A DNA stretch of 32,974 nt from Candidatus Nanohaloarchaea archaeon (lineage in GTDB: Archaea > Nanohalarchaeota > Nanosalinia > Nanosalinales > Nanosalinaceae): positions 1 to 32,974 of the forward strand of contig JBKHHG010000004.1 in assembly GCA_046539225.1 (NCBI GenBank), written 5' to 3'. The notes beneath the pieces are model-generated. The model saw only the letters and a list, made by a program, of their open reading frames with translations. It had not been told where the DNA came from and did not search any database. Below, one piece after another: positions 603 through 29,978 of this stretch; within the stretch, counting starts at the first letter, position 1; every line of letters starts with the position of its first letter. Made by a program: the position numbers and the translations under genes.

Positions 603-627
603 TATGCCGGGGCGGAGATTTGAACTC
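603..627. repeat. 25-bp direct copy of the tRNA-Leu 3' end
   Basis: TATGCCGGGGCGGAGATTTGAACTC at 603-627 is identical to 682-706. Confidence 0.95.
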
Positions 628-683
628 GAAGCTCGCAGATATGGAGCTTCTACCATCAAATACCGCCATATTGAAGTATTATA

Positions 684-888
684 TGCCGGGGCGGAGATTT
701 GAACTCCGGAACCCCTGCGGGACAGGATATCAAATCCTTATCCTGAAAGCCGCCTTGCGTGGCTTATGATGCCGCAGATTTCTGTATTGAAATCTGCTTT
801 GAGCACGCTTCACTTAGAAACGTGCGGCTCGAACTTTCAGAAGTTCGGTTCTTAAGTCCTGCGCCTTTGGCCACTTGGCTACCCCGGC
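684..888 (-). tRNA. tRNA-Leu(TAA) with a ~122-nt intron (729-850) in the anticodon loop
   Basis: 5' exon GCCGGGGTAGCCAAGTGGCCAAAGGCGCAGGACTTAAG; 3' exon ATCCTGTCCCGCAGGGGTTCCGGAGTTCAAATCTCCGCCCCGGCA. Anticodon stem CAGGA/TCCTG, long variable arm, T-loop GTTCAAATC. Confidence 0.9.
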
Positions 889-923
889 ATTTTTTGGGAC
901 TTTGGCCGGGTTGGCAAGATTTA

Positions 924-941
924 ACTTGGCTACCCCGGCAT
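924..941. repeat. 18-bp direct copy of the tRNA-Leu 5' end, with an imperfect inverted copy at 905-918
   Basis: ACTTGGCTACCCCGGCAT at 924-941 is identical to 873-890. GCCGGGTTGGCAAG at 905-918 is a near reverse complement. Confidence 0.9.
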
Positions 942-995
942 AAATTGGTGATTACCTGTTATGGATGTTAGAACTGTTGAGTTATTTAAGGCCTG

Positions 996-1298
996 TCATT
1001 CGATTAGCGCCGAGGCCTTGATATAGGTTGACCGGAGCTCCTCCTCTATCTTTTCTACCGTTCTCTGGTCTTCCCTGAATACTTCCGGGCTTTCGCCTTG
1101 CTGCATCATTTCAGATCTGGCCATGTACTCGTGTTCGTAGGCCTCGTCCAGTACTTCGTCCATCTTCTGCTCTATCCAGTCAGAAGAGGCCTGGAGGTCG
1201 ACGTGGTCGCCTCTCGGAGAGTAGTCGATATCCGGATGGTTGTAGGCCAGGTTCTCCAGCTTGAATACTGTTTTGGAATAGTTCTCTACTGTTTGCAT
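996..1298 (-). CDS. Hypothetical acidic protein
   Basis: 100-aa D/E-rich ORF starting 3 nt after the stop of 1302-1856. No family recognised. Confidence 0.7.
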   Translation of the reverse strand: MQTVENYSKTVFKLENLAYNHPDIDYSPRGDHVDLQASSDWIEQKMDEVLDEAYEHEYMARSEMMQQGESPEVFREDQRTVEKIEEELRSTYIKASALIE

Positions 1299-1301
1299 AG
1301 A

Positions 1302-1832
1302 TTAAGGATTTTTCTGGTTGGAAAGGGCTTCATCTACTTCATTGATGTATTTGGCGATTCTTTTGGTTTCCTGTCGAAGCTGTGGAAAGTTTTCCGGGTT
1401 GTATTCTACTGACACACTGGAACTTACATTGGCCCATACATCCGGCATATCTTCTGGCTCTTCGATAGGGTAATCCGCCTCTTCAAGCAGGTGGTCCTTG
1501 TTTATATAGAAAATCTGGACGCCTGTCTCATCAGCCGTTACATCAAGTATCTGGCCGCTCAAAACGGTTTCCTGATCAGCGATCTGGCCAGGGTTAGCTG
1601 GGTCTTCAGCTGCCTGTTCAGGACTGAATCCTATCTCGTACTCCAGAAGATCATTTACATATGAAGCAACCTCATCGTAACTTTCAGGCGAGGGTTCCTC
1701 GTCATCGATCTGCTCCTCTGGTATAGGTACTCTATCTGGAATTGCTTTTCTGGGATCAAAGACCCCCACATCTTCTTCCGGTGTTACAAGCTCATTATCT
1801 TCCTTCGTATATTCATCATCTCCTGGATTCAT
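1302..1832 (-). CDS. Hypothetical acidic protein (start probably ATG1832 rather than 1856)
   Basis: Long, very acidic ORF with an AT-rich TATA-like stretch near 1850-1868. No family recognised. Confidence 0.7.
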   Translation of the reverse strand: MNPGDDEYTKEDNELVTPEEDVGVFDPRKAIPDRVPIPEEQIDDEEPSPESYDEVASYVNDLLEYEIGFSPEQAAEDPANPGQIADQETVLSGQILDVTADETGVQIFYINKDHLLEEADYPIEEPEDMPDVWANVSSSVSVEYNPENFPQLRQETKRIAKYINEVDEALSNQKNP

Positions 1833-1903
1833 AACGTTACTAACTAAGTATAACAAAAATTATATAAGAACCGGTAGAATCTGAATAAGACTTATATGGA
1901 AAA

Positions 1904-2266
1904 TTAAGGCCCTGGATTGTAGCTTGAGGCCCTGAAGCCGGTGAGATGTGATTCTTCGAGCGCTTCTTCTACACTTGATGTTTCAAAGGCCTTTACGATG
2001 TTTAAAACGTTTCTGGCGGCTTTTTCATCGTTTTCAGGGTGTTCTGCTTCCAGCCTTATTTCATCGCCGTTGACTTCGAGTCTATCGTCAGCAGGCGGTG
2101 AGATTTCATACTCTTTGAAGTATCTGGCCAGGGCTTGGACGTACTCTACTGAGGCCTTTCCCTTGCTGTAGCCCCATTCAAGCCTTCCGTCCATCTCGGA
2201 GAGTTGGAGGCCTTTCTCTTCTATCAAACGGTTGTAGGTATCTGGCTTAGAAGCTTGTCCGAACAT
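1904..2266 (-). CDS. Hypothetical protein coupled to rpoD
   Basis: 120-aa acidic ORF whose start overlaps the rpoD stop (TAATG). Confidence 0.75.
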   Translation of the reverse strand: MFGQASKPDTYNRLIEEKGLQLSEMDGRLEWGYSKGKASVEYVQALARYFKEYEISPPADDRLEVNGDEIRLEAEHPENDEKAARNVLNIVKAFETSSVEEALEESHLTGFRASSYNPGP

Positions 2267-2832
2267 TATCCCTGAATCTTCTGTTCGAATTCGACGAGGT
2301 CTGTTTTGATGCTGTCGACTGAGGCCTCGAGGAGTTCCCTGTTTGTGTAGCCCGAGGTGGATTCGATTCGGAAGATGAAGTCGTCTCCGTCTTTTTCGTA
2401 TCCGATTGTTCCGCCCTGGTGTTTGGCGTGTTCGCGGCCTGTTCCAAGCACTGCTGTTGCTTCGAGTTCAAGGTCCTGTCCTTCTTTCAGTGTCACAATA
2501 TCTATGCCTTCGTTGACCGGTTCTGCTTCCTCGTTGTCGGTCTGTATGTCGCCGGATTTTACTGTTGCAGGGCCTTCCTTCTTGATTGCGATGTGAAGTG
2601 TATCGTCCTCGTCAAACTTTTGTGGGACTGTAAACGGCACCTGTCCCAGCCTGTTGGCCAGGTCTTCGTCGAAGAGGCCTGACTCGTTTTTCACTACATC
2701 GATCTCTTTTATCGCAAGCGTCGGGACTCGGGCCATCATTGCTCTTCTGAGTGCGTTTGCGACAGCCGGGTAAGAATCCTTTAACCGGGCTTCCAGAACT
2801 CCATTCTCTTCTTCGCCTATCTCAAGGTTCAT
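2266..2832 (-). CDS. rpoD: RNA polymerase subunit D (Rpo3)
   Basis: ANALRRAMMARVPTLAI, N.SGLFDE.LA.RLG.VP, G.GREHAK and FIFRIES motifs; canonical position after rps11. Confidence 0.97.
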   Translation of the reverse strand: MNLEIGEEENGVLEARLKDSYPAVANALRRAMMARVPTLAIKEIDVVKNESGLFDEDLANRLGQVPFTVPQKFDEDDTLHIAIKKEGPATVKSGDIQTDNEEAEPVNEGIDIVTLKEGQDLELEATAVLGTGREHAKHQGGTIGYEKDGDDFIFRIESTSGYTNRELLEASVDSIKTDLVEFEQKIQG

Positions 2833-3212
2833 ACTCTTCTACCTCTCTTCCCGCCTTTCTCCCTGCAACTGTCGTGAGGTACAGGCGTCACGTCTTCAAT
2901 GTTTCCGACTTCCATGTCTTCGTTCCGGGAAATGGCTCGGATCGCTGGCTGCGCACCTTTTCCTGGGATCTTGTTGCCCTGTCCACCGGGAGCTCTTACA
3001 CGTATATCTACTTTTTCCAGGCCTTTCTCTACGGCTTCTTCAATCGCTTGGTCGGCGGCTTTCATCGCAGGGAATGCGCCCCCCTGTAATCGGCCTTTGT
3101 CCGTCGCCATTCCGGATGTAATCCTTGAAATGGTTTCGGCCCCTGTAGCGTCTGTGACGTGGACAATCGTGTTGTTAAAGCTCGAGTAAATATGTACCAG
3201 TCCTTTCTTCAT
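2829..3212 (-). CDS. rps11: 30S ribosomal protein uS11
   Basis: HIYSSFNNTIVHVTD, PGKGAQPAIRA, IEDVTPVPHD and GGKRGRRV motifs. Confidence 0.98.
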   Translation of the reverse strand: MKKGLVHIYSSFNNTIVHVTDATGAETISRITSGMATDKGRLQGGAFPAMKAADQAIEEAVEKGLEKVDIRVRAPGGQGNKIPGKGAQPAIRAISRNEDMEVGNIEDVTPVPHDSCREKGGKRGRRV

Positions 3213-3763
3213 TATTCTTCCACCTCCTCGTTTTCTTCAGTATTTCCGCTTTCTTCCGTTTCCTCAGATTCTTCATCTTCTTCTGAGGCCTCTGTTTCAT
3301 CGGGTTCTGAAGGTTCTTCGACTTCTATAGTCTTTTCCTCTTCAGTTGTCAGCATGTATCCTGGAATGTTGACTTTCTCGCCGTTGACCTTCACCCGTCC
3401 ATGGGTTACAAGCTGCCTGGCGTGTTTCGGAGAGTCCGCGTGGCCTCTCCTGTCGACTGCGGTCTGCAGTCTACGGTTCAAAATATCTTCTACCTGAAGC
3501 GTAAGCAGGTCTGTAAGCTCCGCGTCCGACTTTACAAGGCCTAAACGGTTCGCCTTGTTGAGAACGTCTTCTGCTTCGCTGCTTTCCTCTCCTACAAGTT
3601 TTCTGGCCTCTCTCCTGAAGTTCCTGAGCTTAGAGTAGGCCTTGTAGATCTCTTCCTTGTTCTTGAGGCCGTAGTTATCTCTCAGCTCGTCTTCTCTCTG
3701 GATTCTCTCCTCGTTCCATGCCCGGTTAGGGGTTTCGTACTGTTTCTTCAGGTTCTTGACCAC
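3212..3763 (-). CDS. rps4: 30S ribosomal protein uS4 with acidic C-terminal tail
   Basis: K.YETP...W, YGLKNKEE, RRLQT and ARQLVTHG motifs; Shine-Dalgarno GGAGGTG at 3771-3777. Confidence 0.97.
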   Translation of the reverse strand: MVKNLKKQYETPNRAWNEERIQREDELRDNYGLKNKEEIYKAYSKLRNFRREARKLVGEESSEAEDVLNKANRLGLVKSDAELTDLLTLQVEDILNRRLQTAVDRRGHADSPKHARQLVTHGRVKVNGEKVNIPGYMLTTEEEKTIEVEEPSEPDETEASEEDEESEETEESGNTEENEEVEE

Positions 3764-3820
3764 TCGAAAACACCTCCTGTATTTTCTGCGAGTCCAGAAA
3801 TTCTTTGAATTTCGTCCATT

Positions 3821-3883
3821 CTATCTAATCCTGTTTTTGAGTTCTCTGTACCTTCTCTTTGCTTTTTCCTTAAGTTCTTTCAT
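3821..3883 (-). CDS. Putative 20-aa basic micro-protein MKELKEKAKRRYRELKNRIR
   Basis: ATG overlaps the rps13 stop (ATGA), with GGAGG just upstream; TAG at 3821-3823. Function unknown. Confidence 0.45.
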   Translation of the reverse strand: MKELKEKAKRRYRELKNRIR

Positions 3884-4350
3884 TCTTCATCTCCTCCTTC
3901 TGCCGCGGCTTCTTCCTTGATTGACGCAGTGTCAACCCCGATCTTGCTGCCGGTTCTGAACGAGGACTTGGTCTTCTGCCCTCTTACCGGAAGACCGATC
4001 TCATGTCTCCAGCCTTTGTAGGAGTCAATCTCCTTCAACCGGCGGATATCGAACTCTTCCTTAAGCTCGAGATCGGATTCGATTAAATGTTCGTCTTCGC
4101 CAGTCTCTCTGTCGTTCCTCCTGTTAAGCAGGTAGGACGGAAGATCCGGATTCTTCAACTCTTCCTCTATCTCATCTATTTCCTCGTCTGAAAGATCTCC
4201 GATCTTTGTGTCGGAGTAACCGAGTTCATGTGCGATGGCGTTGCCGTAGGTGTCGCTCACACCTTTCAGGCCTGTAATCGCTTCCTGTACTGGCTTTGTA
4301 CCATCGATACCGGTTCTGGCTATCCGTACTACTTCTTTTGTATCTGGCAT
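3880..4350 (-). CDS. rps13: 30S ribosomal protein uS13
   Basis: VRIA.T.IDG, LNRR.D.ETGED.HL and SYKGWRH..GLPVRGQKTK motifs. Confidence 0.98.
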   Translation of the reverse strand: MPDTKEVVRIARTGIDGTKPVQEAITGLKGVSDTYGNAIAHELGYSDTKIGDLSDEEIDEIEEELKNPDLPSYLLNRRNDRETGEDEHLIESDLELKEEFDIRRLKEIDSYKGWRHEIGLPVRGQKTKSSFRTGSKIGVDTASIKEEAAAEGGDEE

Positions 4351-4380
4351 GATTACGTAAAATACTGATTCCGGTTAAAT

Positions 4381-4388
4381 CTTATAAA
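4381..4388 (-). promoter_or_regulatory. Probable TATA box of the rps13 operon
   Basis: TTTATAAG on the minus strand, 31-38 nt upstream of the rps13 ATG. Confidence 0.5.
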
Positions 4389-4477
4389 GGTACCAAAGAA
4401 AGGCCTGCCTCTACGAAAAAATAGTTGGGAGGCCTCAAAGAGTCACTTTTCATCGATCCTGGCTTTTTGAGGATCGG

Positions 4478-4503
4478 CTATTTCTCGTCAACTTTCTTTA
4501 TGA
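4478..4503. repeat. 26-bp direct copy of the parvulin gene 3' end including the stop codon
   Basis: CTATTTCTCGTCAACTTTCTTTATGA (4478-4503) versus CTACTTTTCGTCAACTTTCTTTATGA (4542-4567): 2 mismatches, and both encode IKKVDEK*. Confidence 0.9.
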
Positions 4504-4541
4504 TTGAAAATCAGAGATTTTCGGCTTCATCAGAAGATTGA

Positions 4542-4823
4542 CTACTTTTCGTCAACTTTCTTTATGAGATGCCATCCGAACTCTGTTTTCACTGGGTCAG
4601 AAACCTCTCCCGTATCTATTTCAAAGGCCTTTTTCTCGAAAGGTTTGACCATGTCGCCTCTTCCGAACCATCCGAGGTCGCCGCCTTTGTCGCCTGAAGG
4701 GCCTTCAGATTTCTTCTTCGCCATTTCTTCGAAGGATGCTCCTTCTTCGATCTCCTGTTTGATCTGGCGGGCGTGTTCCCTGTTATCCACGAGAATATGT
4801 TTGGCATGCACTTTTCCTGTCAT
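4542..4823 (-). CDS. ppiC: Parvulin-type peptidyl-prolyl isomerase
   Basis: HAKHILV, FEEMAKK.S..PS..KGGDLGWF.RG.MVKPFE..AF and PVKTEFGWHLIK motifs. Confidence 0.95.
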   Translation of the reverse strand: MTGKVHAKHILVDNREHARQIKQEIEEGASFEEMAKKKSEGPSGDKGGDLGWFGRGDMVKPFEKKAFEIDTGEVSDPVKTEFGWHLIKKVDEK

Positions 4824-4857
4824 AAAGGGTTTTTAGGCCTCCATCTTTTTGATTCTT

Positions 4858-5649
4858 TCAGTCGTAGATCGTGCGATGTGTAATGCCGGGGCCGGCAACG
4901 ATCTTTGGACCTTCTTCTATCTTTTCGCATCTCGAGTCTGTCTCTGCTCTCTCTACAGGAACGTCTCCCTCTATTTCAGTGTCTCTTAACCTGATCTCTA
5001 TCCGCTGGGCCTCGCTGAATCTTCCAAACTTCATGGTGTCGAAATCTGTTGAGAACCCGGAGGAGTCGACGGGGTGCCCCGTGGCGTTGTAGAGGCAGGA
5101 CTGAATCCTCAGGCCTTCTGACTCCTCGGGTAGGAATCCTTTCTTTTCCACAGTTGCTTCGCCTATATCCACGGTTTCGTTCATCTCAACACTGTCGACA
5201 AAACTGGAACTGTACTCTGCTTCTTCCGAAACAATATCATAAGCCGCGAGGCCTCCAACCATTACGGTCAATGCTATTAGACTGTAGAGGAACTGTTTTT
5301 TCTCGAGTTGGAACTCTTTCTGTGTCACGAGGTATCCGAGGCCTGCGAAGACCGCTGAGGAGAATGTCAGCGATACCATGATCTGGTCGGAGCTGAAGCC
5401 GAACTTTCCTGTCATGTACATAAGGCCTATGATGTAGGCTCCAGCGGAGAATATGTAGGAGAGTACTGCGGTGTTGCCGTCCCTCCTGATTCCAAAGCCG
5501 AGGAAGCCGAGGAACAGTGCGAAAAGTATTGATGTTATTGTAAAGGGTGAGAGCGCTGTGAGGTACTCGAATCCGAAGTAGAAGATTGCGAGCACTCCGA
5601 GAAATGCTGAGGCTCCGTAGAATATCTTTGTCTGGTCGATGAAGGTCAT
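4858..5649 (-). CDS. Hypothetical membrane protein with ~5 TM segments and an acidic C-terminal domain
   Basis: Hydrophobic N-terminal half and acidic C-terminal half. Confidence 0.8.
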   Translation of the reverse strand: MTFIDQTKIFYGASAFLGVLAIFYFGFEYLTALSPFTITSILFALFLGFLGFGIRRDGNTAVLSYIFSAGAYIIGLMYMTGKFGFSSDQIMVSLTFSSAVFAGLGYLVTQKEFQLEKKQFLYSLIALTVMVGGLAAYDIVSEEAEYSSSFVDSVEMNETVDIGEATVEKKGFLPEESEGLRIQSCLYNATGHPVDSSGFSTDFDTMKFGRFSEAQRIEIRLRDTEIEGDVPVERAETDSRCEKIEEGPKIVAGPGITHRTIYD

Positions 5650-5689
5650 AAATCTTTTTTATCTGAGAAGGGTTTAAAATCTGAGGGTT

Positions 5690-5762
5690 TAGCCCCTCCC
5701 GGATTCGAACCAGGGTCTCCGGCTCCAAAGGCCGACGGACTTGGCCACTATCCTAAGGGGCT
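5690..5762 (-). tRNA. tRNA-Gln(TTG), intronless
   Basis: AGCCCCTTAGGATAGTGGCCAAGTCCGTCGGCCTTTGGAGCCGGAGACCCTGGTTCGAATCCGGGAGGGGCTA folds as a cloverleaf with anticodon TTG. Confidence 0.93.
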
Positions 5763-5804
5763 TCAAGTCAACATTCACAGCAATTCTTAATAACGGTTAG
5801 AGAT

Positions 5805-6707
5805 TCAAAAGGCCTGGAACAGTATGTACGCCAGGAACACCGCAAGTAAAATTAAGGCCTCGATCCTTGAAAACTCTCCTTTCCATGAGAAGATCATTGT
5901 CAGGCCTCCGACCAGCACCAGTCCGAGAAGAACCGGCATCAAGGAGATTATTGATGGTGTGGAGATCAGTCCGAGGAGGCCGAGGCTTAAAGTGATGTTG
6001 ACCAGGGTTGAACCGAATATGTCGCCGAGCGCCAGCGAGTAGTCTCCTTTTCTGATTGCGGTGACTTCGAACGCGAGTTCGGGGAGGCCTGTACCGACCG
6101 CTACAACTGTTGCGCCCAGGATCTCTATCGGGATTCCAATGGCTTCTCCCAGTCCTTTTGCCCCGGCCACCATTATCCTTGCCGAGAGCAGAAGCGCTGC
6201 CACACCTATCAAAGTCAGTAAAATCTCTTTGGAGGAGGCCTCTCCTTCTTCATCTATCTGGAACGCGGAGTGCTCGACCCGGTAGAGAAAAGCTGCGTAG
6301 ACTGTCAAAAGCATTACGACTACGCCGAGCGAGAGACTCTGGAAAACTATCAGGACCAGGGCTGCGAACATTGTGGCGATAACCGCATCCCTTACCAGGT
6401 CAAGGTCTTCTCCGTGAAGTTCCAGGCCTTTAGCGGCCAGGATACTGATGCCAAGCACGAAAGTCAGGTTTACGAGCGAGGATCCGATTATGTCTCCCGC
6501 AGAAAGCTCTGGAACGCCTTCAAAAGTCGATATCAGGGCTGTTGCGAGTTCGGGAAGCCCTGTGGATATGGATATGAAGACTGCTCCGAACATGAAGCCC
6601 GGGATCCCATAGGCCTTGATCAGTTTCTCCGCATTCTCGACAGTTTTATCCGCAGAGATCCAGAGGCCTACAAGTCCTGCTATCAGAAATGCTGCGTATT
6701 CAATCAT
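5805..6707 (-). CDS. Ca2+/Na+ antiporter (CaCA/YrbG family); start probably 6707 (MIEYAA)
   Basis: Two alpha repeats (STGLPEL...GDIIGSSLVN and GTGLPEL...GDIFGSTLVN) and about 10 TM segments. Confidence 0.92.
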   Translation of the reverse strand: MIEYAAFLIAGLVGLWISADKTVENAEKLIKAYGIPGFMFGAVFISISTGLPELATALISTFEGVPELSAGDIIGSSLVNLTFVLGISILAAKGLELHGEDLDLVRDAVIATMFAALVLIVFQSLSLGVVVMLLTVYAAFLYRVEHSAFQIDEEGEASSKEILLTLIGVAALLLSARIMVAGAKGLGEAIGIPIEILGATVVAVGTGLPELAFEVTAIRKGDYSLALGDIFGSTLVNITLSLGLLGLISTPSIISLMPVLLGLVLVGGLTMIFSWKGEFSRIEALILLAVFLAYILFQAF

Positions 6708-6862
6708 ATATCTCTGGAAATATTTCAGGCCTGACCGCATTTAATCTCTCCGGTAGGTGCCGTCCCCTTGATCCTCTCTGCCTGTCAAAGTGACCCGGTT
6801 CTCCTACCCCCCTTGAGATTCTCGTTGTCGTAGAAGCCGGATTCTCTGATCCGCGATGAATA

Positions 6863-7018
6863 TCAGTTTTTGTATACTTCGAGAAGCGTTCTTGTTACAG
6901 CGAGTATTACCGGCCCCAGGAATATTCCTACGGACCCGAATACAGTTATTCCTCCTACGGGGCCTGTTATGACGAGATATGGGTGTACTGGCGTTGATCT
7001 TGCTGGTAACGGGTTATC
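6863..7018 (-). pseudogene. C-terminal remnant of an AI-2E (PerM) family transporter
   Basis: DNPLPARSTPVHPYLVITGPVGGITVFGSVGIFLGPVILAVTRTLLEVYKN* matches the AI-2E signature HP....G..GG...FG..G.FLGP.I.A. No start codon or N-terminal part is present. Confidence 0.7.
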
Positions 7019-7081
7019 GGAAGAAGTGTCGGCTCTACGCCATGCTGGGAATGGACACCAGCGAATAACTCTTATCTCTAT

Positions 7082-7456: not shown

Positions 7457-7605
7457 GTGGTATCGGCCTCGAAACCATGTATCTGTCTCCGGACCCGGCC
7501 CTTTAATATCGTTCGGATATCAAGTTCCGATATGATACAGACATACAGTTCTCTCAACACGGCGTATGCAGAAAATCAAAACACAAGAGCGGGCGGTGGC
7601 GAAAA

Positions 7606-8436: not shown

Positions 8437-8439
8437 GTT

Positions 8440-8994: not shown

Positions 8995-9064
8995 TAGGTT
9001 GTTAATTTGTGCTGAATCGGTCACCGAACTGCGAGTTTGATGGAGAAGGACACAGGCTTTATTA

Positions 9065-9301: not shown

Positions 9302-9326
9302 CCACACTAATCAAACTGATAGTTAT

Positions 9327-9930: not shown

Positions 9931-10031
9931 TCTACCTCTTCAAGCCTCTTTACGTGAGTGTAGATGTAGTAAAGCGATACCGCCGAGATTATTAATGCGT
10001 AGACGGCGAAAAATAGGTGGAGGCCTTTCAC
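9924..10031 (-). CDS. Uncalled 35-aa single-TM micro-protein MKGLHLFFAVYALIISAVSLYYIYTHVKRLEEVEW
   Basis: The GTG start overlaps the upstream stop (GTGA) and the TGA at 9924-9926 overlaps the next gene's start. The ORF spans the whole intergenic gap. Confidence 0.7.
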   Translation of the reverse strand: MKGLHLFFAVYALIISAVSLYYIYTHVKRLEEVEW

Positions 10032-10960
10032 CGGTTCATCAACCTGGACAGGAAGGATTCATCCTGCTGGATGGTCTGGACGGCTTCCTCGGCTTTTTCA
10101 TTCTCCTGCTCGATCTGGCTGATGACTTTCCCTAACTCGTTTTCCTCGGATTGGAAGCCTTGAGCGCCTGAAATTCTCTGCTCCATGGACTGGGCTTCTT
10201 CGTAGGCCTCCTGCAGCTCTTCACGGTATCTCTGAGCCTCCGTCTTTATCTGTTCGACAAGCTCTTCCTCCTCCTGTATTTCCTGGCCTACCTGTCTGTT
10301 CTCTGTCCTTACTTCTTCGTTCACCTGCTGCCTCAGCTCCTCAATTTTCGATGCGTAACGGGACTCTTCCTCTCCGCCAATATAATTTACAAACTTCTCC
10401 ATCACATCGAGCTCACTGTTAAACCTTCCGACTTCTTCCTCAAGATGCGATTCAAGCTGGAGATCCGAGCCCTCAGCTCTTTCCATTTCTCCGATCAGTT
10501 TAGCGGCTCCAAGTATCTGATCCGCTTCCACCGACATCTCGGCGACAGCCCTCTCCAGGTCCTGGATAGCCTGGTCAACGGTTTGATGCGACATCTTCTG
10601 GTTCAGGCCTCTGATCTCCTGTTTAACCTTCTCAAGCTTCTGGAAAGTGCTTTTCTCCTCAGAGCCGATACCCTGCTCGTACTCGCTCAACATTCCAATA
10701 AGCTGCTGCTGATCCCGGATAGCTTGCTCGATTCTTTCGGCCTCGTCCTCGATCTCCAGGCCTTCCTTGCCTAACATCTCTTCAAGCCGGTCAAGCTCCT
10801 GCCTCGAAAGATCCTCAGGATCCTTACCGCTCAAAAAATCCTCTATACTTTCCTGCCGGGAGTCAACCTTTCTTCCCTCCTCAGCCAGATCGTTTACAAT
10901 CCCCCGGATCTGCCTCAGAACTCCCTCGGCCTCACCTAACACGTTACCTGTGTCAACCAT
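10028..10960 (-). CDS. Acidic coiled-coil protein of unknown function
   Basis: 310 aa, E/Q-rich with heptad periodicity. Confidence 0.8.
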   Translation of the reverse strand: MVDTGNVLGEAEGVLRQIRGIVNDLAEEGRKVDSRQESIEDFLSGKDPEDLSRQELDRLEEMLGKEGLEIEDEAERIEQAIRDQQQLIGMLSEYEQGIGSEEKSTFQKLEKVKQEIRGLNQKMSHQTVDQAIQDLERAVAEMSVEADQILGAAKLIGEMERAEGSDLQLESHLEEEVGRFNSELDVMEKFVNYIGGEEESRYASKIEELRQQVNEEVRTENRQVGQEIQEEEELVEQIKTEAQRYREELQEAYEEAQSMEQRISGAQGFQSEENELGKVISQIEQENEKAEEAVQTIQQDESFLSRLMNR

Positions 10961-11026: not shown

Positions 11027-11225
11027 TCAAACTTCTGAAAGTTTGATCATCAGATTGCATGGCTATTTGAGCCAGGCCTTGCGTGTCAACATAGCGTAAC
11101 AAGTTTTTCGCCGGAGCTGGGTCCGAAACTCGAAGAGTTTCTGGAGCAGCAGAAAGTTCTCTGAACTTTCAAGGGATTTGAACCCGAAGCAGGCAGAATT
11201 GCTGCTTCTCTCATCAAATCCAGCC
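11027..11225. repeat. Hairpin mosaic downstream of tRNA-Ser containing a split copy of the tRNA 3' end
   Basis: Hairpins TCAAACTT-CTGA-AAGTTTGA, GAAACTC-GAA-GAGTTTC, GAAAGTTC-TCT-GAACTTTC and GAAGCAG...CTGCTTC. CGCCGGAGCTGGG (11109-11121) and GGGATTTGAACCC (11173-11185) together copy 11241-11263. Confidence 0.8.
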
Positions 11226-11240: not shown

Positions 11241-11385
11241 CGCCGGAGCTGGGATTTGAACCCAGGAGACCCGTGAGGGTCACCGGTTAGCTTGTCGAAA
11301 GTCAAAGGACTTTCTCTTCCCTTGTCCTCCGAAGAGGACATCAGGTTTTCAAGACCGGCACCTTTAGCCACTCAGTCACTCCGGC
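11241..11385 (-). tRNA. tRNA-Ser(TGA) with a 59-nt intron (11289-11347) at 37/38
   Basis: 5' exon GCCGGAGTGACTGAGTGGCTAAAGGTGCCGGTCTTGAA; 3' exon AACCGGTGACCCTCACGGGTCTCCTGGGTTCAAATCCCAGCTCCGGCG; central bulge-helix-bulge (BHB) helix CTTG/CAAG. Confidence 0.92.
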
Positions 11386-11556
11386 ACAATTGGTTACGCT
11401 CGATTGATACGCAAGGAGCCATTCAGTGGAATGGCTCAGCGAGGTATCTCTTAGAAATTATTGGCTTTTGGAAACTTTAAATTAGAACGGGGAGCGAGGC
11501 CTATCTTTTTGATCTGGGTTATCAGAGTTCTTTGGTTAGGCCTTGGGGGAAAGTCT

Positions 11557-22343: not shown

Positions 22344-22377
22344 ACCCTGACCATTGGCAGGTAAAGTAAGAGGAGGC

Positions 22378-23412: not shown

Positions 23413-23450
23413 ACTGAAGATTTAGGCCTCTACACTTTAATTTCCCGCTG

Positions 23451-24491
23451 CTAAAAATAGTCTTCAAAGCTCTGGAAGGCCTGCTCCATGAAATCGACCG
23501 CTTCCTCCGCATCCGACATTTTCAAAACTTCTATGGCTGTATGGAGATGCCTTGTAGGTATAACGACGACTCCAGTCGGAACCCCGGCCTTGCTGATGTT
23601 TATATGGGTTGCGTTAGTCTTTCCCTTGTCGTAAAGCTTTCTATGGTAGTTAAAGCCTTCTGCACTTTCTATAAGCCAGTTTCTCACCGATTCGGGGGTT
23701 ATGACTCCTCTACCCGAGGCCTCCATCATCGTAAGGCCGAATCCGTCGCCAGTGAACTCGTCTGATTCGTCGAGATCCATGTTAGGCGTGTCTCCGGCTC
23801 TCGCGGTTTCAAGGACTACAGCCGCGTCAGGCTCCAGATCGAAAGCCGCTGTTCTCGCACCTTTACCTCCTACTTCTTCCTGGGCCGAGAAAACCGCTAC
23901 AAGCTCGTAGTCCTCGTCAAAGTCGTTAAAGGCCTGGACCGCTATCATGCAGCCGATTCTGTTGTCCATAGCCGGGCCTGTGACGTATCCGTTGATCATT
24001 TCCTTGAAGCCGCGGTCGAAGGTGACGTAGTCGCCGACCCTGACTCCTCTATCCTGCAGCTCTTCCCTGTTTTCCGCTCCGACGTCGACAAAGGCCTTCT
24101 TCATCTGCGGCAGGTCGCCATCGCCCGGATTATCTATAAGGTGCGCGGGTTTTGCCCCGATCACTCCCGTCAGGTTTTCCCCTTCTGAAGAATGTACTTC
24201 AACCCGTTGATTAACGATTGAGATGGGGTAGGCGCCTCCGATCTTCGAGACCCTGATGAATCCGTCTTCCGTTATTCTTCTGACGCCCATGCCGATCTGG
24301 TCCATGTGGGCGTCGATCATCAGGGTTTTATCGCCCGAGCCTTTCCTTGCGATCAGGTTGCCGAAGTCGTCCACCCTGACGCTATCAGCTTCGTCCTCGA
24401 TCTCTTCCATGATTTTCTGCCTTACAGGCCTCTCATTCCCTGATACGCCTGGCGTTTCCACAAGTTTCTTCAGAAGCTGTCTGGGGCTCAT
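23451..24491 (-). CDS. M42 family (TET) aminopeptidase, divergent paralog
   Basis: AHMDQ, DNRIG, QEEVG..GA and RHLHT motifs; VLE and KGKTNA replace AID and GGATDA. Confidence 0.93.
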   Translation of the reverse strand: MSPRQLLKKLVETPGVSGNERPVRQKIMEEIEDEADSVRVDDFGNLIARKGSGDKTLMIDAHMDQIGMGVRRITEDGFIRVSKIGGAYPISIVNQRVEVHSSEGENLTGVIGAKPAHLIDNPGDGDLPQMKKAFVDVGAENREELQDRGVRVGDYVTFDRGFKEMINGYVTGPAMDNRIGCMIAVQAFNDFDEDYELVAVFSAQEEVGGKGARTAAFDLEPDAAVVLETARAGDTPNMDLDESDEFTGDGFGLTMMEASGRGVITPESVRNWLIESAEGFNYHRKLYDKGKTNATHINISKAGVPTGVVVIPTRHLHTAIEVLKMSDAEEAVDFMEQAFQSFEDYF

Positions 24492-24543
24492 GTGTAAAGC
24501 TGTTGATACGAGATTTTAAACAGTAATTGGATAAAGACTCTGT

Positions 24544-24918
24544 ATGCTTCGGTACCTGATAGTGCTTTTGCTTGTGCTGCCTTTCATCGACCTCTACATG
24601 CTGGTAGAGGCGTCAGGCCTACTCGGGTTCTGGACTGTTTTAGGCTTTGTAGTCCTGACAGGCCTGATAGGCGCAGAGCTGATAAGAAGAGAAGGGCACC
24701 ACGTACTTCTAAAACTCCAGCGATCCGTAACTGGAGGAGAGGTCTCGAGAAACGTGGCAGAAGGAGCCATCATACTTTTCTCCGGATTGCTGCTGCTGAC
24801 CCCCGGCTTTCTGACGGACGGCCTCGGTTTCCTGCTTATCCTCAGGCCTTTACGGGAGAGGCTGGTCGCCAGAGTCATTGACGGAGGCTCGATGCGTTTC
24901 GAGGTCAGGACCTTCTGA
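24544..24918 (+). CDS. fxsA: FxsA-family membrane protein
   Basis: LP.ID...L, G.W.V...V.LTG.IG and GLLLLTPGFLTD.LG.L motifs. Confidence 0.9.
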   Translation: MLRYLIVLLLVLPFIDLYMLVEASGLLGFWTVLGFVVLTGLIGAELIRREGHHVLLKLQRSVTGGEVSRNVAEGAIILFSGLLLLTPGFLTDGLGFLLILRPLRERLVARVIDGGSMRFEVRTF

Positions 24919-25606
24919 CCGCCACAGCTACAGAAACCGCGAACACGAAGACACCGATATTCTGAGGAACCTCGAACCCGAAAAGCGACAACGATATGAT
25001 TCCCAGAACGGCAAAAGCGCCGTAACGTATGTAGTCCAGCTCCATAGAGTACTTTTTAAGGCCTGAAGCCAGATAAAGCCCAAAGATTGCGAGGCCTGCC
25101 GTCGTCAACGCAGGTGCCACGTATTCAAAGGTTAGAGGCGCCCGACTCACACCTTGGAAAGACAGTACAAGGCCTGTCAGGATCACCGCGGAAGGCGGAA
25201 ACTTTTTAGCTACTTCAAGATCCAGGATCTGAAGCGAGATCGACAGTATCGCGATTCCCGCTGCATACTTCAAAAGCTCTGTGTTAAACATGTGCTCGAA
25301 AACCGGTGCAACAAGCGCCACAGCAACAACGCCGATAAACAATACGGGTATAACGCTGTTAACCATTTTCAAGGCCTCGGAAACGTTTTCCGACTCCGAG
25401 TAAAGTACTGCCAGAGCTCCTGCCCCTGTAAAGATTGTTACAGCCACATTCAGCATCTGGCTGAAAGTGTTTACAGCTCCTGTCACCAGCAAAGTGGCGA
25501 AGACCCCGTCGACAAGCGGCAGGCACAGTATAAACGCCAGTCTGCGCGTACCGGGATCGAACAGAGTCCGCCGTGAAGCACCAGAGGCGAGTTTGTCCAG
25601 AACCAT
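24905..25606 (-). CDS. Haloarchaeal-type multi-TM membrane protein (DUF5794-like)
   Basis: LPLVDGVF..L...GA motif and about 7 TM segments. The family assignment is from recollection only. Confidence 0.7.
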   Translation of the reverse strand: MVLDKLASGASRRTLFDPGTRRLAFILCLPLVDGVFATLLVTGAVNTFSQMLNVAVTIFTGAGALAVLYSESENVSEALKMVNSVIPVLFIGVVAVALVAPVFEHMFNTELLKYAAGIAILSISLQILDLEVAKKFPPSAVILTGLVLSFQGVSRAPLTFEYVAPALTTAGLAIFGLYLASGLKKYSMELDYIRYGAFAVLGIISLSLFGFEVPQNIGVFVFAVSVAVAVRRS

Positions 25607-25755
25607 GAGGAGAACAGCCTGAAGGCCTGGAATTTAATTAAACTTGTTCCAGGTAAAATTGTGCTTGGAAAAAGTGAACGCAGTCTCCGAAAACTGTTTT
25701 GCTATATTGCTTGCTGCGTTCATACAAGCCTGTTAGGCCTCACCTGTTAAAAACC

Positions 25756-26985
25756 TTACTGGTTTCTCTCCGCTACAGTCTTGGTAAGCTGGGAGAGCTC
25801 GACCACATCGTTCATCAGATCCTTGAACTCTTCCTTGCCAATAGCTTCTTCATCCATGCCCTGAACCACCATCTCAAGGTCTTCAAGCTTCTGCTTCAGC
25901 ATGTCGACCTCGGAAACCTTGTCCTCCAAGGCCTCGAGATCCTGAATCTTATGCTCCAAGTACTTGGTCGTATCCTTCAAACGACCGAACTGGTTGACCC
26001 CCTGCTCATCTATCTGATCGATAATCTCCTCGGACTCATCCTGGCGCTCCTCAAGCTGCTTCAAGGCATCCCAGAGACTGCCAACCTCTTTACTGGTAGC
26101 GTACTGGGACGAAATCTTGTCATCAAAGTCTGAAACCTCCTCGTTAAGCTCTCGGCGGAAGTCCTCCATCTCCTCGTGGAACTCCTGCTCCGTGACCGCG
26201 TCCTGATCCTCCAGCCTCTCAATACTCGACCTGATAGACGAGAACTCGTTTCTAACAGATTCAACCTTCGACTCCAGCGTGTCCACCCGATCCTCAAACT
26301 CATTGCTGTCAGGCGTGTTCTGCTTCAAGGCCTCAATCCTGTCCTCAAGCATCTCCAGAGAGGCCCAGAGGCTTCCGACCTCAGACTTGTCAGGAGTCTT
26401 CTCCTCTATCTCGTTCTCCATAGACCCAATCTCTTCCTCAATCTCCTCTCTAAAGCTTTCAAACCTTTCCTCAATCATGGAGAGATCGACTTTCTCCTCT
26501 ATCTCAATATTCTCCAGCTCTTTCTCGACATCAGGCCTTTTATCATCCATCTTCTGCTCCAGATCATCCAGACGGTCTTCAAACAAGGTTTTATCGACTT
26601 TCTCCTCCACAGCAGCAGAAGAGGCCTGGCTCTCGACTTCTTCAAGCCTTGACTCCAGTTCTTCAATCCTCTGTAGAAGCTTGGAATTATCATCTACTTT
26701 CTCGCCTGATCCGGGCTCACCGGGCGAAACCTGCTCAGAGGCCTGAGACTCAAACCTTTGCTGCTTAAAACCTTCATCCTGTTCTCCAGCTTTTTCTTCC
26801 CGAGCATCTTCCTGTTCTACCGGTTGAGGCCTCTGTTCTGGTTCTTTATGCTTTAACTTGTGCAGCTCTCTTCTCAACTCCTTGACCTCATCGTCGTCAA
26901 TATCGATATCAGGGTCTTCTCCTTCAAGCTCCGAGATACCTTTGGATACAGATTCCTGCAGCTCTGCAGAGTTGAACAAGCTCAT
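25756..26985 (-). CDS. Large acidic coiled-coil protein with an internal EVGSLW repeat
   Basis: 409-aa E/D/K-rich heptads containing SEVGSLWASLEMLEDR and KEVGSLWDALKQLEER. Confidence 0.8.
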   Translation of the reverse strand: MSLFNSAELQESVSKGISELEGEDPDIDIDDDEVKELRRELHKLKHKEPEQRPQPVEQEDAREEKAGEQDEGFKQQRFESQASEQVSPGEPGSGEKVDDNSKLLQRIEELESRLEEVESQASSAAVEEKVDKTLFEDRLDDLEQKMDDKRPDVEKELENIEIEEKVDLSMIEERFESFREEIEEEIGSMENEIEEKTPDKSEVGSLWASLEMLEDRIEALKQNTPDSNEFEDRVDTLESKVESVRNEFSSIRSSIERLEDQDAVTEQEFHEEMEDFRRELNEEVSDFDDKISSQYATSKEVGSLWDALKQLEERQDESEEIIDQIDEQGVNQFGRLKDTTKYLEHKIQDLEALEDKVSEVDMLKQKLEDLEMVVQGMDEEAIGKEEFKDLMNDVVELSQLTKTVAERNQ

Positions 26986-27027
26986 TTTTGAGGCCTCATT
27001 TCTGTTTTTGTTCTCCCGGTTTAAATT

Positions 27028-27975
27028 TCATTGCTCGACAAGGAAGACAGGCTCTCCAGAGTCCAGGACTTTTTCACCGTCAAAAAACACCGTCGGATCC
27101 TCACACACCGTATCCCAGTGAATACTGCATTCATTGGATTCATCTCCGTCAACATACGAGGTGTTGTCGCCAAACGCAAAATGAACCGTCCCAAGAACTT
27201 TCTCATCCTGCAGAACTTTTCCTATCAAAGTTGCTTCAGGATTTGTTCCGATGCCGAACTCCGCTACTTTTCTCGAACCTTCTACATCTTCAAAGGCCTT
27301 TGAAAGCTCTGATTCTTCCCCCTGTCGAACCGCAACCGCTTCATTACCCTTTATCTCAACTTCAGTTCCTTCAGGCGCGTACGGGAAGTGATCAATGACG
27401 AGAACGCCTTCCGCATCAGTTATAGCTCCATCAACTTCGCCCGCGGGAAGATTACCGAAGTCTCCGGGCTCGTGTATAAGGCCTGTATCCGTATCGAAGT
27501 ACTCCACGTTGATAGAAAACTTCAGATCAGTTCCTGAAGGCGTTGTAACCCTGACGCGTTCCGTGTCTTTCAGCAGAGAGTAGAGTTTTCCCGAGATCTC
27601 CCCTACTCTACTATAATCCGCCTGAAGGCTTGTACTCCAGATCTCCTGGTTTATGGCGGGCATCGTCGCGATTCTCGCTCCTTCCTCGCAGGCCTCTTTT
27701 CTCGCCGATGTATGGGATATAGATTTCCTGGTCGGCGCAACCACGAGATCAAAGTCTTTCATCGCCTCAGCGATCTCTTCAGGAGGTTCTTCTCCATGTC
27801 TCTCCGGCTCATCGTACTGCTTCAATGCAACGATCGAGGCCTCTTCCCTCGCCACGCTTAAAAGCGATTCAACTATCTGCTCATCGTTTCCATCGTTCAA
27901 GACGAGAACAGTTTCACCATGTTTCAGATCCATGCACTGACTGAGAACTGTCTCGGCTCCTCTCTCAAGATCCAT
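27028..27975 (-). CDS. M29-like (AmpS/AmpT) metallo-aminopeptidase
   Basis: TP.GTDL, NLP.GEV, AEFGIGTNP, DEKVLGTVHFAFG.N and HWD motifs. Confidence 0.9.
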   Translation of the reverse strand: MDLERGAETVLSQCMDLKHGETVLVLNDGNDEQIVESLLSVAREEASIVALKQYDEPERHGEEPPEEIAEAMKDFDLVVAPTRKSISHTSARKEACEEGARIATMPAINQEIWSTSLQADYSRVGEISGKLYSLLKDTERVRVTTPSGTDLKFSINVEYFDTDTGLIHEPGDFGNLPAGEVDGAITDAEGVLVIDHFPYAPEGTEVEIKGNEAVAVRQGEESELSKAFEDVEGSRKVAEFGIGTNPEATLIGKVLQDEKVLGTVHFAFGDNTSYVDGDESNECSIHWDTVCEDPTVFFDGEKVLDSGEPVFLVEQ

Positions 27976-28045
27976 AACCCTGTATACGAGGCCTCAAGTT
28001 AGAAAGCTTTCCCCTGTAGAGGCCTGAAAGCATCAGCTCTAAAAC

Positions 28046-28243
28046 TTACTTCAGCCTGACACCCGTTCCCCTACCAAGATCCACGAACTCGAGATTGCCT
28101 TCACGGGCAAGCCAGCCCACCGCCATATTCACCTTTGACTGCGGACCCTCAACCTCTCTCGAAATCTGGCTCAACGAGGCCTCTCCAGCCTCTTCAAGAA
28201 AATCGTAGACCTCGCCCGCAAGCTCACCTATAGTATGTTCCAT
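28046..28243 (-). CDS. Small winged-helix protein (DUF2582-like)
   Basis: IGE.AG.VY..L and A.GWLAREG motifs. Confidence 0.88.
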   Translation of the reverse strand: MEHTIGELAGEVYDFLEEAGEASLSQISREVEGPQSKVNMAVGWLAREGNLEFVDLGRGTGVRLK

Positions 28244-28325
28244 AGAAAAGATTTAACTCGCTCTACTTTAAACAATTTCCCCGAACTATCCAAATTAAAA
28301 CTTTCACCCCTCCAAACAAAGACAG

Positions 28326-28455
28326 GCCTCGGTGGCTCAGCCTGGCTAGAGCGATCCCCTCGTACGAACTTCTGAAAGTTCGACCATCACCAGCCTTTCA
28401 AAAAAAGGCCTTCCGAGAAAGGGATAGGTCCCGGGTTCAAATCCCGGCCGGGGCT
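28326..28455 (+). tRNA. tRNA-Thr(CGT) with a 55-nt intron (28365-28419) at 37/38
   Basis: 5' exon GCCTCGGTGGCTCAGCCTGGCTAGAGCGATCCCCTCGTA; 3' exon AGGGATAGGTCCCGGGTTCAAATCCCGGCCGGGGCT; canonical BHB with helix CTCG/CGAG and flanking GAA/TTC. Confidence 0.93.
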
Positions 28456-28572
28456 CTACTCTACAAATTCAAAGCCCTTAGAGCTTGACAATTCTTTCAC
28501 TTTTGAACAAAATGTATGGGGATTTGAACCTGTAAGAAACAACTTCTTTAACATAGAAACGAAGCATGAAAT

Positions 28573-29430
28573 ATGGAAATAACGATTGTAGGCTCTGGGG
28601 GCAATTCATCTCCTCCTATGCCAACCTGTGACTGCGAAATATGTGAAGAGGCAAGGGAAAAAGGAGTTCCCTACTCAAGAAGCGGAAACTCAATATTTAT
28701 CCACGACCAGAATATCCTGATTGACACTCCAGAGAGAATCTGGGACTCTCTGAACAGGGAAAATATCGAAAAAGTTGATTACATCTTTATCTCCCACTTC
28801 CACGCAGACCATGTGCTTGGACTAAGAGTTCTACAGCCGCTCGGATTAGAAGAGATACCGGTAGAAAACTTTGTCGGAGAAGACAAACCAACACTGGTTA
28901 TGAGCCAGCAAACATATGATAGAGTGGTAGATGGAAACGAAGTCTTTCAAGCAATAACTGGTAACTGGGCGGATGTAGAAATACTAAACGATGGAGAAAC
29001 TATGGAAATCGGAGATTTAGAGGTCAAGTCTATAGGAGCTGAATTAGAAAAAGGCAATGGAAAAGAAGTCTTCGGATTTCTACTCACAGAAGACGATAAG
29101 ACTGCTTTCATCTCCCCTGATGAAAATAGACACTTCAAACTTGATAGACTGCCAAAATTAGACCTGTGGATAAAGGAAACAGGTTATTTCGAGGAAACAC
29201 CTGACGGAAGACTTCTGAGGACAGAGAAAGCTGAAGAAACAACTTTGAAGCACGAAATGAAGTTTGAGGAATCTTTGGAACAGATTAGACAGGTTAAGCC
29301 GGAAAGAGTCGTTATGACAGAAATAGAGGAGCTCTTCAGAAGAAGCTACGACGACTACAAAGAACTCGAAAAGAAATACCCAGCACTAAATCTAGAGTTC
29401 GCGTACGATGGAATGAAGATCAATCTTTAG
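28573..29430 (+). CDS. Metallo-beta-lactamase-fold hydrolase (PhnP-like)
   Basis: GSGG...P.P.CDCEIC, LIDTP, SHFHADH..GL and a C-terminal AYDGM.I. Confidence 0.9.
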   Translation: MEITIVGSGGNSSPPMPTCDCEICEEAREKGVPYSRSGNSIFIHDQNILIDTPERIWDSLNRENIEKVDYIFISHFHADHVLGLRVLQPLGLEEIPVENFVGEDKPTLVMSQQTYDRVVDGNEVFQAITGNWADVEILNDGETMEIGDLEVKSIGAELEKGNGKEVFGFLLTEDDKTAFISPDENRHFKLDRLPKLDLWIKETGYFEETPDGRLLRTEKAEETTLKHEMKFEESLEQIRQVKPERVVMTEIEELFRRSYDDYKELEKKYPALNLEFAYDGMKINL

Positions 29431-29504
29431 CTATACACCTTGAACTCTTAGGTCAGATCCGGTCAGGGCTTCAGCCTTTGGGTTCAAGGCCCGACAATTT
29501 TTCT

Positions 29505-29978
29505 TCATATCTCCTTGAACTTTACCGAGATATGGTCCTGGAAACTGTTATCTTTCCAGAATTTGTCGGCCCCCTCATTTCCCTCAATCACTCTGGCCTT
29601 TACCAAATCAATGCTTTTTTTCTTGAACCATTCTTCAGCTTTTTTCTCGAGTTTTTCGCCGATTCCCTGGCCTCTTTTCTCCTTTTTTACGAAGACCTTG
29701 CTTATTTCACCGAGTTTTTCCTGCCTGAGTATTTCAGGATGTTCCTCAATAGAAGCTGACAAATAGCCAATTACCTCTTTATCTTCCTCGACTATAAGGT
29801 ATAAGGAATCAGGATTTTCCAGATCTTTTTCTAATTTCTCCCGGTAAATTTTCTCTGCATCCTGCTTTAAAGTAACAAACTTGTGGTGATACTCCTCGTG
29901 GAAACGCATGAACATATTCCACATCTCTATAATATCTTCAGTATCAGAGGCCTCCGCCACCCGGATATTTACAGCCAT
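29505..29978 (-). CDS. GNAT-family N-acetyltransferase (start probably ATG29978)
   Basis: IR.A...D, V....RGQGIG..L and N.GA..FW...F motifs. Confidence 0.92.
   Translation of the reverse strand: MAVNIRVAEASDTEDIIEMWNMFMRFHEEYHHKFVTLKQDAEKIYREKLEKDLENPDSLYLIVEEDKEVIGYLSASIEEHPEILRQEKLGEISKVFVKKEKRGQGIGEKLEKKAEEWFKKKSIDLVKARVIEGNEGADKFWKDNSFQDHISVKFKEI

Follow-up and report, generated by a model that had tools for sequence, protein, structure and literature searches.

Short non-coding units that combine a second copy of a gene end with an inverted copy and a hairpin adjoin several tRNA genes and the protein-coding gene ppiC in contig JBKHHG010000004.1 of a Candidatus Nanohaloarchaea archaeon (assembly GCA_046539225.1). 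The layout of these units is real and is found order-wide; they are mini-elements lacking an open reading frame (ORF) that probably replace gene ends and have hairpin modules in common with tRNA introns. The window referred to below is the whole stretch of DNA that was analysed (32,974 nt), which is contig C4 of a genome of 607 kb that is 82% complete; other contigs are likewise given by C numbers and the loci fetched from relatives by L numbers. A gene end is denoted X, its upstream and downstream copies X_up and X_down, and the inverted arm X'. The coordinates of the features are collected in Table 1.

Layout of the units and the probable replacement of gene ends

Read away from the gene, a unit consists of X_up, a spacer, the imperfect inverted arm X', a hairpin of the form A-GAA..TTC-G, and X_down. 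The counts given for this layout are based upon 65 distinct T-loop units gathered from this genome and from the fetched loci, and are biased by the search patterns used. The units are 61–121 nt long (median 76) and are non-coding, without an ORF. Their hairpins belong mainly to two sequence families, GAAGCTC (30 of 65 units) and GAAAATC (29 of 65), and the bases at the foot are near-constant, with A before GAA in 52 of 55 units and G after TTC in 48 of 55. Hence, the suggestion in the first-pass annotation of this DNA that the architecture rather than the sequence is conserved holds for the copied ends, which differ between loci, but not for the hairpins. Units at 5' ends have the same polarity and lie on the antisense strand. 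Many of the longer units begin with a head module (GGTTAC..CGCAA followed by a hairpin), which was found in 17 of 41 genomes, and a second type of tail, of which CATCA is a part, is formed by a core hairpin and ATCATCAG, the core being present 10 times in this genome. Two-hairpin doublets are nested within downstream copies, as in the Ser unit of the window, and similar nesting is seen in L163, L164, L166, and L168.

The pairing of the inverted arm with X spans 14 bases (median), and the arm is specific for its target, the cognate X ranking within the top 10% of partners in 33 of 62 units. In 18 tRNA units the two copies of X differ, and here X' matched X_up better in 11 cases and X_down better in one, with six ties; at ppiC it also follows X_up in L081, L082, and L332, as judged by eye. 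Because X' tracks the upstream copy, the unit is taken to comprise X_up, X', and the hairpin.

The gene-end duplications with an inverted copy that had been reported at the 3' and 5' ends of tRNA-Leu and at the 3' ends of ppiC and tRNA-Ser are present in the sequence. A hairpin had been described as usual at such loci, and a GAA..TTC hairpin is indeed found at Leu 3', ppiC, and Ser, but none at Leu 5' or at the 3' end of a GNAT gene. The GNAT locus does contain a GTTCAA repeat and an inverted arm, but its copy loses the peptide, its fold is not significant, and no GNAT orthologue above 33% identity was found. The folding z-scores are -3.5 for Leu 3', -2.9 for Ser 3', and -2.2 for Leu 5', and are not significant for ppiC (-0.6), GNAT (-0.7), and 28006-28035 (-1.4), the last being a hairpin that had also been listed and that proved to be weak. 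The pattern as a whole exceeds what is seen in shuffled DNA, as had been anticipated: in this genome six sites combine an exact repeat of at least 12 nt with an inverted copy and a GAA..TTC hairpin, compared with none in each of 12 block shuffles. When only the hairpin was required between the copies, and not the inverted copy, the number of sites with an exact repeat of at least 12 nt was 10. A local 3' copy is present at nine of the 27 tRNAs of this genome and a 5' copy at four of them.

That the two copies of a gene end may be of different origin is seen at ppiC, which alone among 1,010 ORF ends of this genome scanned at the peptide level has a downstream copy with a hairpin. The repeat at its 3' end extends over 35 nt at 86% identity (19 exact). 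The locus is filled in seven of 36 loci, with one further remnant, and these are distributed across two families; the three loci from the same genus are all empty. In eight ppiC loci the codon differences between the copies were 29 synonymous versus four non-synonymous, whereas in a random null the non-synonymous codons averaged 25.8, with none of 20,000 runs falling below 17; this null was not conditioned on the kept stop codon, and the choice of copies by peptide match introduces a small bias in favour of the result. As the differences are mostly synonymous, both copies evolved as working gene ends, and the ppiC copies are two different functional alleles. In L332 three ppiC ends occur in tandem, each followed by its own inverted arm. 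As a separate observation, five other ppiC loci (L070, L078, L087, L330, and L333) have neither hairpin nor second copy, yet by eye a remnant of an inverted arm lies behind the stop codon.

Other protein genes are also involved. Units of the head type duplicate the 3' ends of rpl6 and gatD and the 5' ends of secY and an rnp2-like gene (names read from translations). Modules with the core hairpin abut start codons elsewhere in this genome, at DP1 (C21 near 8299), dnaJ (C37 near 2996), and a pdhC-like gene (C17 near 12420), and in C21 and C37 the outer pairs of the hairpin take in bases of the ATG.

Occurrence in relatives and in tRNA introns

The unit motif was searched for in 185,579 GTDB genomes and matched 35 GTDB records, of which 22 are nanohaloarchaea or Asbonarchaeum by name and the other 13 are archaea; all 11 of the metagenome matches lie directly behind a tRNA. 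Orthologous empty sites, which the first-pass annotation had proposed to look for, are numerous and were found at both the Leu(TAA) and the ppiC loci. Among 17 Leu(TAA) loci of relatives, seven have a 3' copy within 110 nt (by eye). Tandem accretion of units is seen at L223, L178, and L332. At L190 tRNA-Pro is followed by a unit with the 3' end of tRNA-Arg(TCG). In L173 and L191, from that genome too, this hairpin stands ahead of the Arg and Pro 3' ends. All three loci are at contig ends, so that instead of transfer of a unit the two tRNA loci may have been rearranged with each other; either event would need a crossover at the junction of hairpin and T-loop.

The duplications are unlikely to be artefacts of assembly, since the units at Leu 3' and ppiC are both spanned by Logan contigs from two runs of one study and are also present in complete genomes (L172, L183, and L186). 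Confirmation from raw reads had been proposed; the evidence obtained consists of contigs instead, with 15 of 39 skipped-unit joints listed, and one of the two runs may be the source sample.

The hairpin modules of the units also occur within tRNA genes, 12 of 16 intron-bearing tRNAs containing the tail hairpin or the head. A bulge-helix-bulge at position 37/38 was recognized by eye in Ser(TGA) and Thr(CGT), and would allow their introns to be spliced. Some further features of these tRNAs were noted in passing. The 196-nt intron of tRNA-Trp (C1 4445-4714) shows, by eye, C/D-box-like motifs, a segment antisense to its own anticodon arm, and family hairpins inserted in reverse orientation. Insertions in the D-loop occur in tRNA-Leu and tRNA-Gln (L007, L073, and genome G020 C9 near 165200), some of them alongside anticodon introns. 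ARAGORN labels the tRNA at 28326-28455 as Ser, and several other intron-bearing tRNAs of this genome look likewise mis-called.

Possible routes of spread and comparison with known systems

We consider the chances to be about even that the units spread as non-autonomous mini-elements which bring their own version of the gene end. Three observations, namely the ppiC alleles, the tracking of the upstream copy by X', and the Arg-type unit at tRNA-Pro, indicate that the gene end is probably brought in by the unit, with displacement of the resident end, and does not arise by local copying. In the proposed mechanism, X_up, the spacer, X', and the hairpin would close into a rod-shaped single-stranded circle or fragment (when closed into a circle, most units are predicted to fold as rods). 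X' would pair both with the gene end carried by the unit (in cis) and with the resident end next to the hairpin (in trans), and a trans-acting enzyme would cut and rejoin one strand at the junction of hairpin and X. The unit's allele would then enter the gene, which would stay intact, whereas the resident end would come to lie behind the hairpin, with upstream sequence being co-transferred by ordinary recombination in some events. Surviving insertions would be those that restore the gene or are spliced out, which would account for the presence of units at tRNA 3' and 5' ends, at the ends of housekeeping genes, and in anticodon loops with a bulge-helix-bulge. DNA is preferred over RNA as the substrate because the units at 5' ends are antisense with the same polarity. 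Integration guided by pairing of a single strand works in this manner at integron attC sites, at CTX-type attP sites, and at the right end of IS200/IS605 elements; the units themselves appear to belong to none of these three groups.

More tentatively, and on balance doubtfully, the units could represent a new class of minimal mobile DNA, in which rod circles of ~75 nt would comprise a replacement gene end, a base-pairing guide, and a recognition hairpin. Such circles would rely on an enzyme of the host or of a passing element for guide-directed exchange of a single strand, could home to any conserved gene end, and could seed archaeal tRNA introns. If this were true, the class would amount to a programmable integration system that exists in nature and uses a long guide, and introns could be gained through DNA. 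If pairing of X' directs insertion, the integrating enzyme would be a programmable integrase. The ppiC data point to an exchange of gene ends between lineages by an element without an ORF, in ultra-small genomes with few mobile enzymes. Since one set of hairpin modules is found both in introns and in gene-end insertions whose orthologous sites may be empty, a donor pool becomes testable. For the arrival of introns in archaeal tRNAs, a recent Asgard census offers no general route (10.64898/2026.10.13.758758). Nanohaloarchaea are available in culture (PMC10266531), so the main predictions can be tested. No description of such an element was found in the literature searched, supplements being outside that search.

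The observations in this and the following paragraph weigh against spread of the units by the mechanism proposed above. The cognate X is the single best partner of X' in only 14 of 62 units, folding energy shows no strand preference (the unit strand is better in 24 of 55), G.T pairs number 27 versus 14, and no circular or RNA form of the units was seen. When the copy belonging to the host is judged by the nearest gene bodies, the result is mixed, with X_down indicated at L077 (4/4), X_up at L082 and L089, and a split at L081. In four tRNA loci (L178, L018, L230, and L243) the 5' strand of the T-stem fits X_up; a single crossover at GTTC would not produce this, and upstream sequence must therefore sometimes have been replaced too. 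The duplication extends into the flank at L162, L188, and the 5' end of tRNA-Gly in this genome, as a target duplication would, and an identical 48-nt tail is present behind two different tRNA-Arg genes of this genome (C11 near 5907 and C27 near 993), each with its own X.

Furthermore, no enzyme could be linked to the units in the families searched. Y1_Tnp (PF01797), the domain of the HUH nucleases (RAYT/TnpA) that the first-pass annotation had led us to look for, is found in 0 of 25 genomes of the family (this genome and 24 relatives). Its matches in one of 41 genomes are two ordinary tnpA-tnpB elements of the IS200/IS605 type without any module match. The integron integrase model TIGR02249 gave no match over the cut-off in 43 genomes, nor in any control genome, with one sub-threshold match in another family. 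Reverse transcriptase, IS110, TnpB, and resolvase gave none over the cut-off in five genomes, and Cas1, present in one of these five, has no link to the units. Y2 (IS91/rolling-circle) transposase was found in 0 of 70 genomes, in a search whose control gave no match anywhere. Tyrosine recombinases (PF00589) gave no match in this genome; a weak family-wide match, tried as a core recombinase, is actually a DEAD-box helicase, and no core Xer-type gene was found. Of four tRNA-linked tyrosine-integrase islands, three have plain attR cores of 12-13 bp with no hairpin, and in the fourth the attR candidate is 11 bp long and 32 kb away; integrases adjacent to tRNAs were accordingly rejected as helpers, the four islands having no att structure in common with the units. 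A gene-carrying version of the units was found neither in 2.6 Mb scanned, nor in four viral scans with the head and tail patterns (0 matches), nor among the 11 metagenome matches. A looser hairpin-only pattern gave 32 viral matches, which were excluded from all counts as probable chance. Separately, in relatives, tyrosine integrases of 400-490 aa lie directly behind tRNA 3' ends (L116, L117, L119-L121, L126, L128, L129, L131, L133, and L136), and the islands tested carry restriction-modification-like cargo.

Duplicated flanks, as well as a tail common to two tRNA-Arg genes and the co-transfer of the T-stem, would be expected if a generic hairpin element made a long and variable target duplication (14-45 nt), X' being formed locally by fold-back or template switching and the alleles later being replaced by homologous recombination with relatives' DNA up to the edge of the element. 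The identical 45-nt duplication at rpl6 and the outer hairpin pairs that adapt to adjoining start codons (C21 and C37) point in the same direction. We nevertheless regard this explanation as unlikely: X' would have to follow each later replacement of an allele (L081, L082, and L332), an internal loop parts X' from the hairpin so that no contiguous fold-back exists, and both the Arg-type unit at Pro and the repeated insertion at the same ppiC codons in two families are left unexplained. An RNA route, in which the splicing endonuclease and a ligase would act at bulge-helix-bulge-like motifs, followed by reverse splicing into tRNA or mRNA and copying back to DNA, appears quite improbable. It is consistent with the occurrence of the same hairpins in 12 of 16 tRNA introns, with the bulge-helix-bulge ends at Ser and Thr (by eye), and with a 4-bp helix and 3-nt bulge at the hairpin foot in L238 and L239, but units of the GAAGCTC type have by eye no canonical bulge-helix-bulge at the X junction, the units at 5' ends are antisense, and no reverse transcriptase was over the cut-off in the five genomes searched.

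The model of the first-pass annotation, in which REP- or IS200-like hairpins with a CATCA foot are nicked by a HUH nuclease and gene ends are copied by template switching, is very improbable and, as written, largely refuted. In its favour, the hairpins are imperfect, and both their unpaired base and the bases at their foot are fixed; the right end of IS200/IS605 elements is similar in having its guide at the 5' foot and its cut on the 3' side of the hairpin. However, CATCA is not one of the 25 top-ranking 5-mers that follow 3,250 perfect hairpins, is weakly enriched after 351 GAA..TTC hairpins (7 versus 3.0 expected, P=0.03), and is present, as CATCA or TGATG, in only 12 of 65 units; in the Leu, Ser, and ppiC units it belongs to the inverted arm itself. 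Y1 is absent from the 25 family genomes as noted, and two working alleles are impossible by local copying. PATEs and IS605 elements, moreover, make no target duplication (PMC3119063). The proposal of a hairpin-directed process at gene ends is supported as far as hairpin-associated insertion is concerned, whereas pure local template-switch copying is contradicted by the different functional alleles at ppiC and by the Arg-type unit found at tRNA-Pro. Spread of units that bring their own gene end would nevertheless be compatible with a HUH enzyme that acts in trans and has escaped recognition. A head module serving as an IS608-type left end (TTAC) was considered and rejected, because its TTAC is internal to the element instead of being placed at the junction. 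We also give little credence to the possibility that the units are immobile and that selection maintains them for a role as trailer or leader RNAs (signals for processing, decoys, or small RNAs of the E. coli RrA/B/F kind). Although another genus has the Leu 3' unit at 87% identity with a perfect X_down, the mismatches in the Leu 5' arm recur from family to family, and E. coli tRNA-linked repeats are transcribed (PMC8144298), the patchy presence, tandem accretion, nesting, antisense 5' units, heterologous Pro unit, and displaced protein alleles all point to movement. A search of the units against Rfam gave no match at E<=5 other than tRNAs, and C/D-box and K-turn readings were discarded as a poor fit by eye.

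Among known systems, those nearest to the hairpin mini-elements are gene-restoring integrative elements, the tRNA-linked repeats of E. coli, and folded sites of the attC/CTX type. The e14 prophage, for example, restores the end of its target gene icd. Islands with a tyrosine integrase also restore the end of the target gene, which leaves attL and attR with a displaced fragment (Islander, PMC4383910; PMC8371274). Like these islands, the units have an intact gene upstream and a displaced copy downstream, use tRNA 3' and 5' ends as well as protein-gene ends, and may have different alleles as their copies; unlike them, they have no integrase or ORF, are 61-121 nt long, and possess a target-specific inverted arm and a fixed hairpin, which the plain-cored integrase islands of this lineage also lack. 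The tRNA-linked repeats (TLR) of E. coli (RtT, RrA/B/F) are non-coding, lie behind tRNAs, and end in an 18-19 bp copy of the 3' end of the upstream gene (PMC8144298). The units behind tRNAs similarly end in a copy of the tRNA 3' end and occur in tandem, the function of the TLR being mostly unassigned, but units are also found at 5' ends (antisense), protein-gene ends, and introns, show an inverted arm and an allele swap, and have no Rfam match at E<=5.

Integron attC sites, with R boxes RYYYAAC/GTTRRRY, and the attP sites of CTX-phage-type integrative mobile elements exploiting Xer (IMEX) are recombination sites formed by a folded single strand. The units are like both in that they have an inverted copy of the target, an internal loop, an extrahelical base in the hairpin, and a direct copy starting near GTT, and the closed unit is predicted to be a rod. 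Unlike attC, they have no cassette ORF, only 6 of 55 have GAAC (the AAC partner) in X', and X is GTTCAAAT instead of GTTRRRY. Integrons of archaea have been treated elsewhere (10.1101/2022.02.06.479319); unlike that system, no IntI was over the cut-off in the 43 genomes searched. Very short, transposase-free, and nested hairpin elements are also represented by PATEs, SMRs, and REP/REPIN sequences, REPINs being resembled by the two-hairpin doublets. PATEs and SMR-A make no target duplication (PMC3119063). In contrast to PATEs, SMRs, and REP, the units carry target-specific sequence and have no TnpA or RAYT, and in comparison with REP/RAYT only single foot bases (A and G) are conserved. A subterminal imperfect hairpin is common to the units and to IS200/IS605 and PATE elements, but the latter have a fixed 4-5 nt target and no duplication, whereas the units show direct copies of 14-45 nt at differing T-loops, D-arms, and ppiC. 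The units also differ from the duplicated-inverted-duplicated products of template switching in not deriving from one local template, as their hairpin is common to many loci, the ppiC alleles are distinct, and an Arg unit is found at Pro. Lastly, the transposed bulge-helix-bulge introns of Thermoproteales have related sequences in several tRNA types (10.64898/2026.10.13.758758), as do the introns described here, but in the present lineage the modules are found in gene-end insertions as well as within introns, and this points to a DNA pool of donors; an insertion model for tRNA-Thr (PMC3293823) was included in this comparison.

Features of the window

The units and related features of the window are listed in Table 1. 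The copies of the Leu 5' repeat (873-890 versus 924-941) are identical at 18 of 18 positions, and by eye its inverted arm is also present in L005, L013, L014, and L030. The solitary inverted T-loop copy behind tRNA-Thr is probably a decayed unit, to judge from its sequence.

Table 1. Positions of gene-end units, their target genes, and related modules in the window
Feature	Position	Strand	Remark
X_down of tRNA-Leu T-loop/3' end	603-627	-	25/25 identical to 682-706
Leu tail hairpin, GAAGCTC family, unpaired C on 3' arm	628-650	-	Same family in 35 GTDB loci
Leu inverted arm X', holding most of CATCA and pairing with X with a bulge	655-667	-	Fold z -3.5; conserved in L002-L004
tRNA-Leu(TAA) with 122-nt intron (about 729-850) made of hairpins, including core hairpin 832-845 and hairpin 774-797	683-889	-
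Leu 5'-end unit, antisense: 5' end 873-890, inverted arm 905-918, copy 924-941; no GAA hairpin	873-941	+
ppiC 3'-end downstream copy, IKKVDEK*, two synonymous codon changes	4478-4503	-
ppiC tail hairpin, GAAAATC family	4506-4522	-
ppiC inverted arm X', directly behind stop codon	4527-4541	-
ppiC (parvulin peptidyl-prolyl isomerase, 93 aa), target gene	4542-4823	-	Rotamase_3, E 1e-25
Head-type module (GGTTAC..CGCAA head, hairpin, TGATG and core hairpin) behind Ser downstream copy	11027-11105	-
Ser downstream copy, interrupted by nested 51-nt two-hairpin doublet 11122-11172 with 3-nt repeat	11109-11185	-
Ser unit: tail hairpin 11186-11208, inverted arm 11212-11225	11186-11225	-	z -2.9
tRNA-Ser(TGA) with 59-nt two-hairpin intron (about 11289-11347), including hairpin 11324-11343 and GAA..TTC tail	11241-11385	-	Bulge-helix-bulge by eye
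Head-type module at Ser 5' end	11389-11437	+	Identical copy upstream of tRNA-Ser(GGA), C34 near 3878; both tRNAs have the same 5' end
tRNA-Thr(CGT) with 55-nt intron 28365-28419, opening with core hairpin and CATCA	28326-28455	+	Anticodon and bulge-helix-bulge by eye
Lone inverted T-loop copy behind tRNA-Thr	28518-28530	+	From sequence
GNAT 3' end, doubtful degenerate unit: GTTCAA repeat and inverted arm, no GAA hairpin	29438-29521	-	z -0.7

Some other features of the window were noted, mainly by eye. Adjoining the 3' unit of tRNA-Leu, at about 90-455, are convergent small ORFs that resemble a RelE/ParE toxin and an antitoxin and are putatively assigned as such. The ORFs at 999-1298 (100 aa) and 10031-10960 (310 aa), which also adjoin tRNA loci, have no Pfam match. 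On the minus strand at about 6860-7010 there is an apparent C-terminal fragment of an AI-2E-type membrane protein without the upstream part, possibly a pseudogene. The palindrome AGGCCT also appears to be very frequent in both coding and intergenic parts of the window, although this is an uncounted impression.

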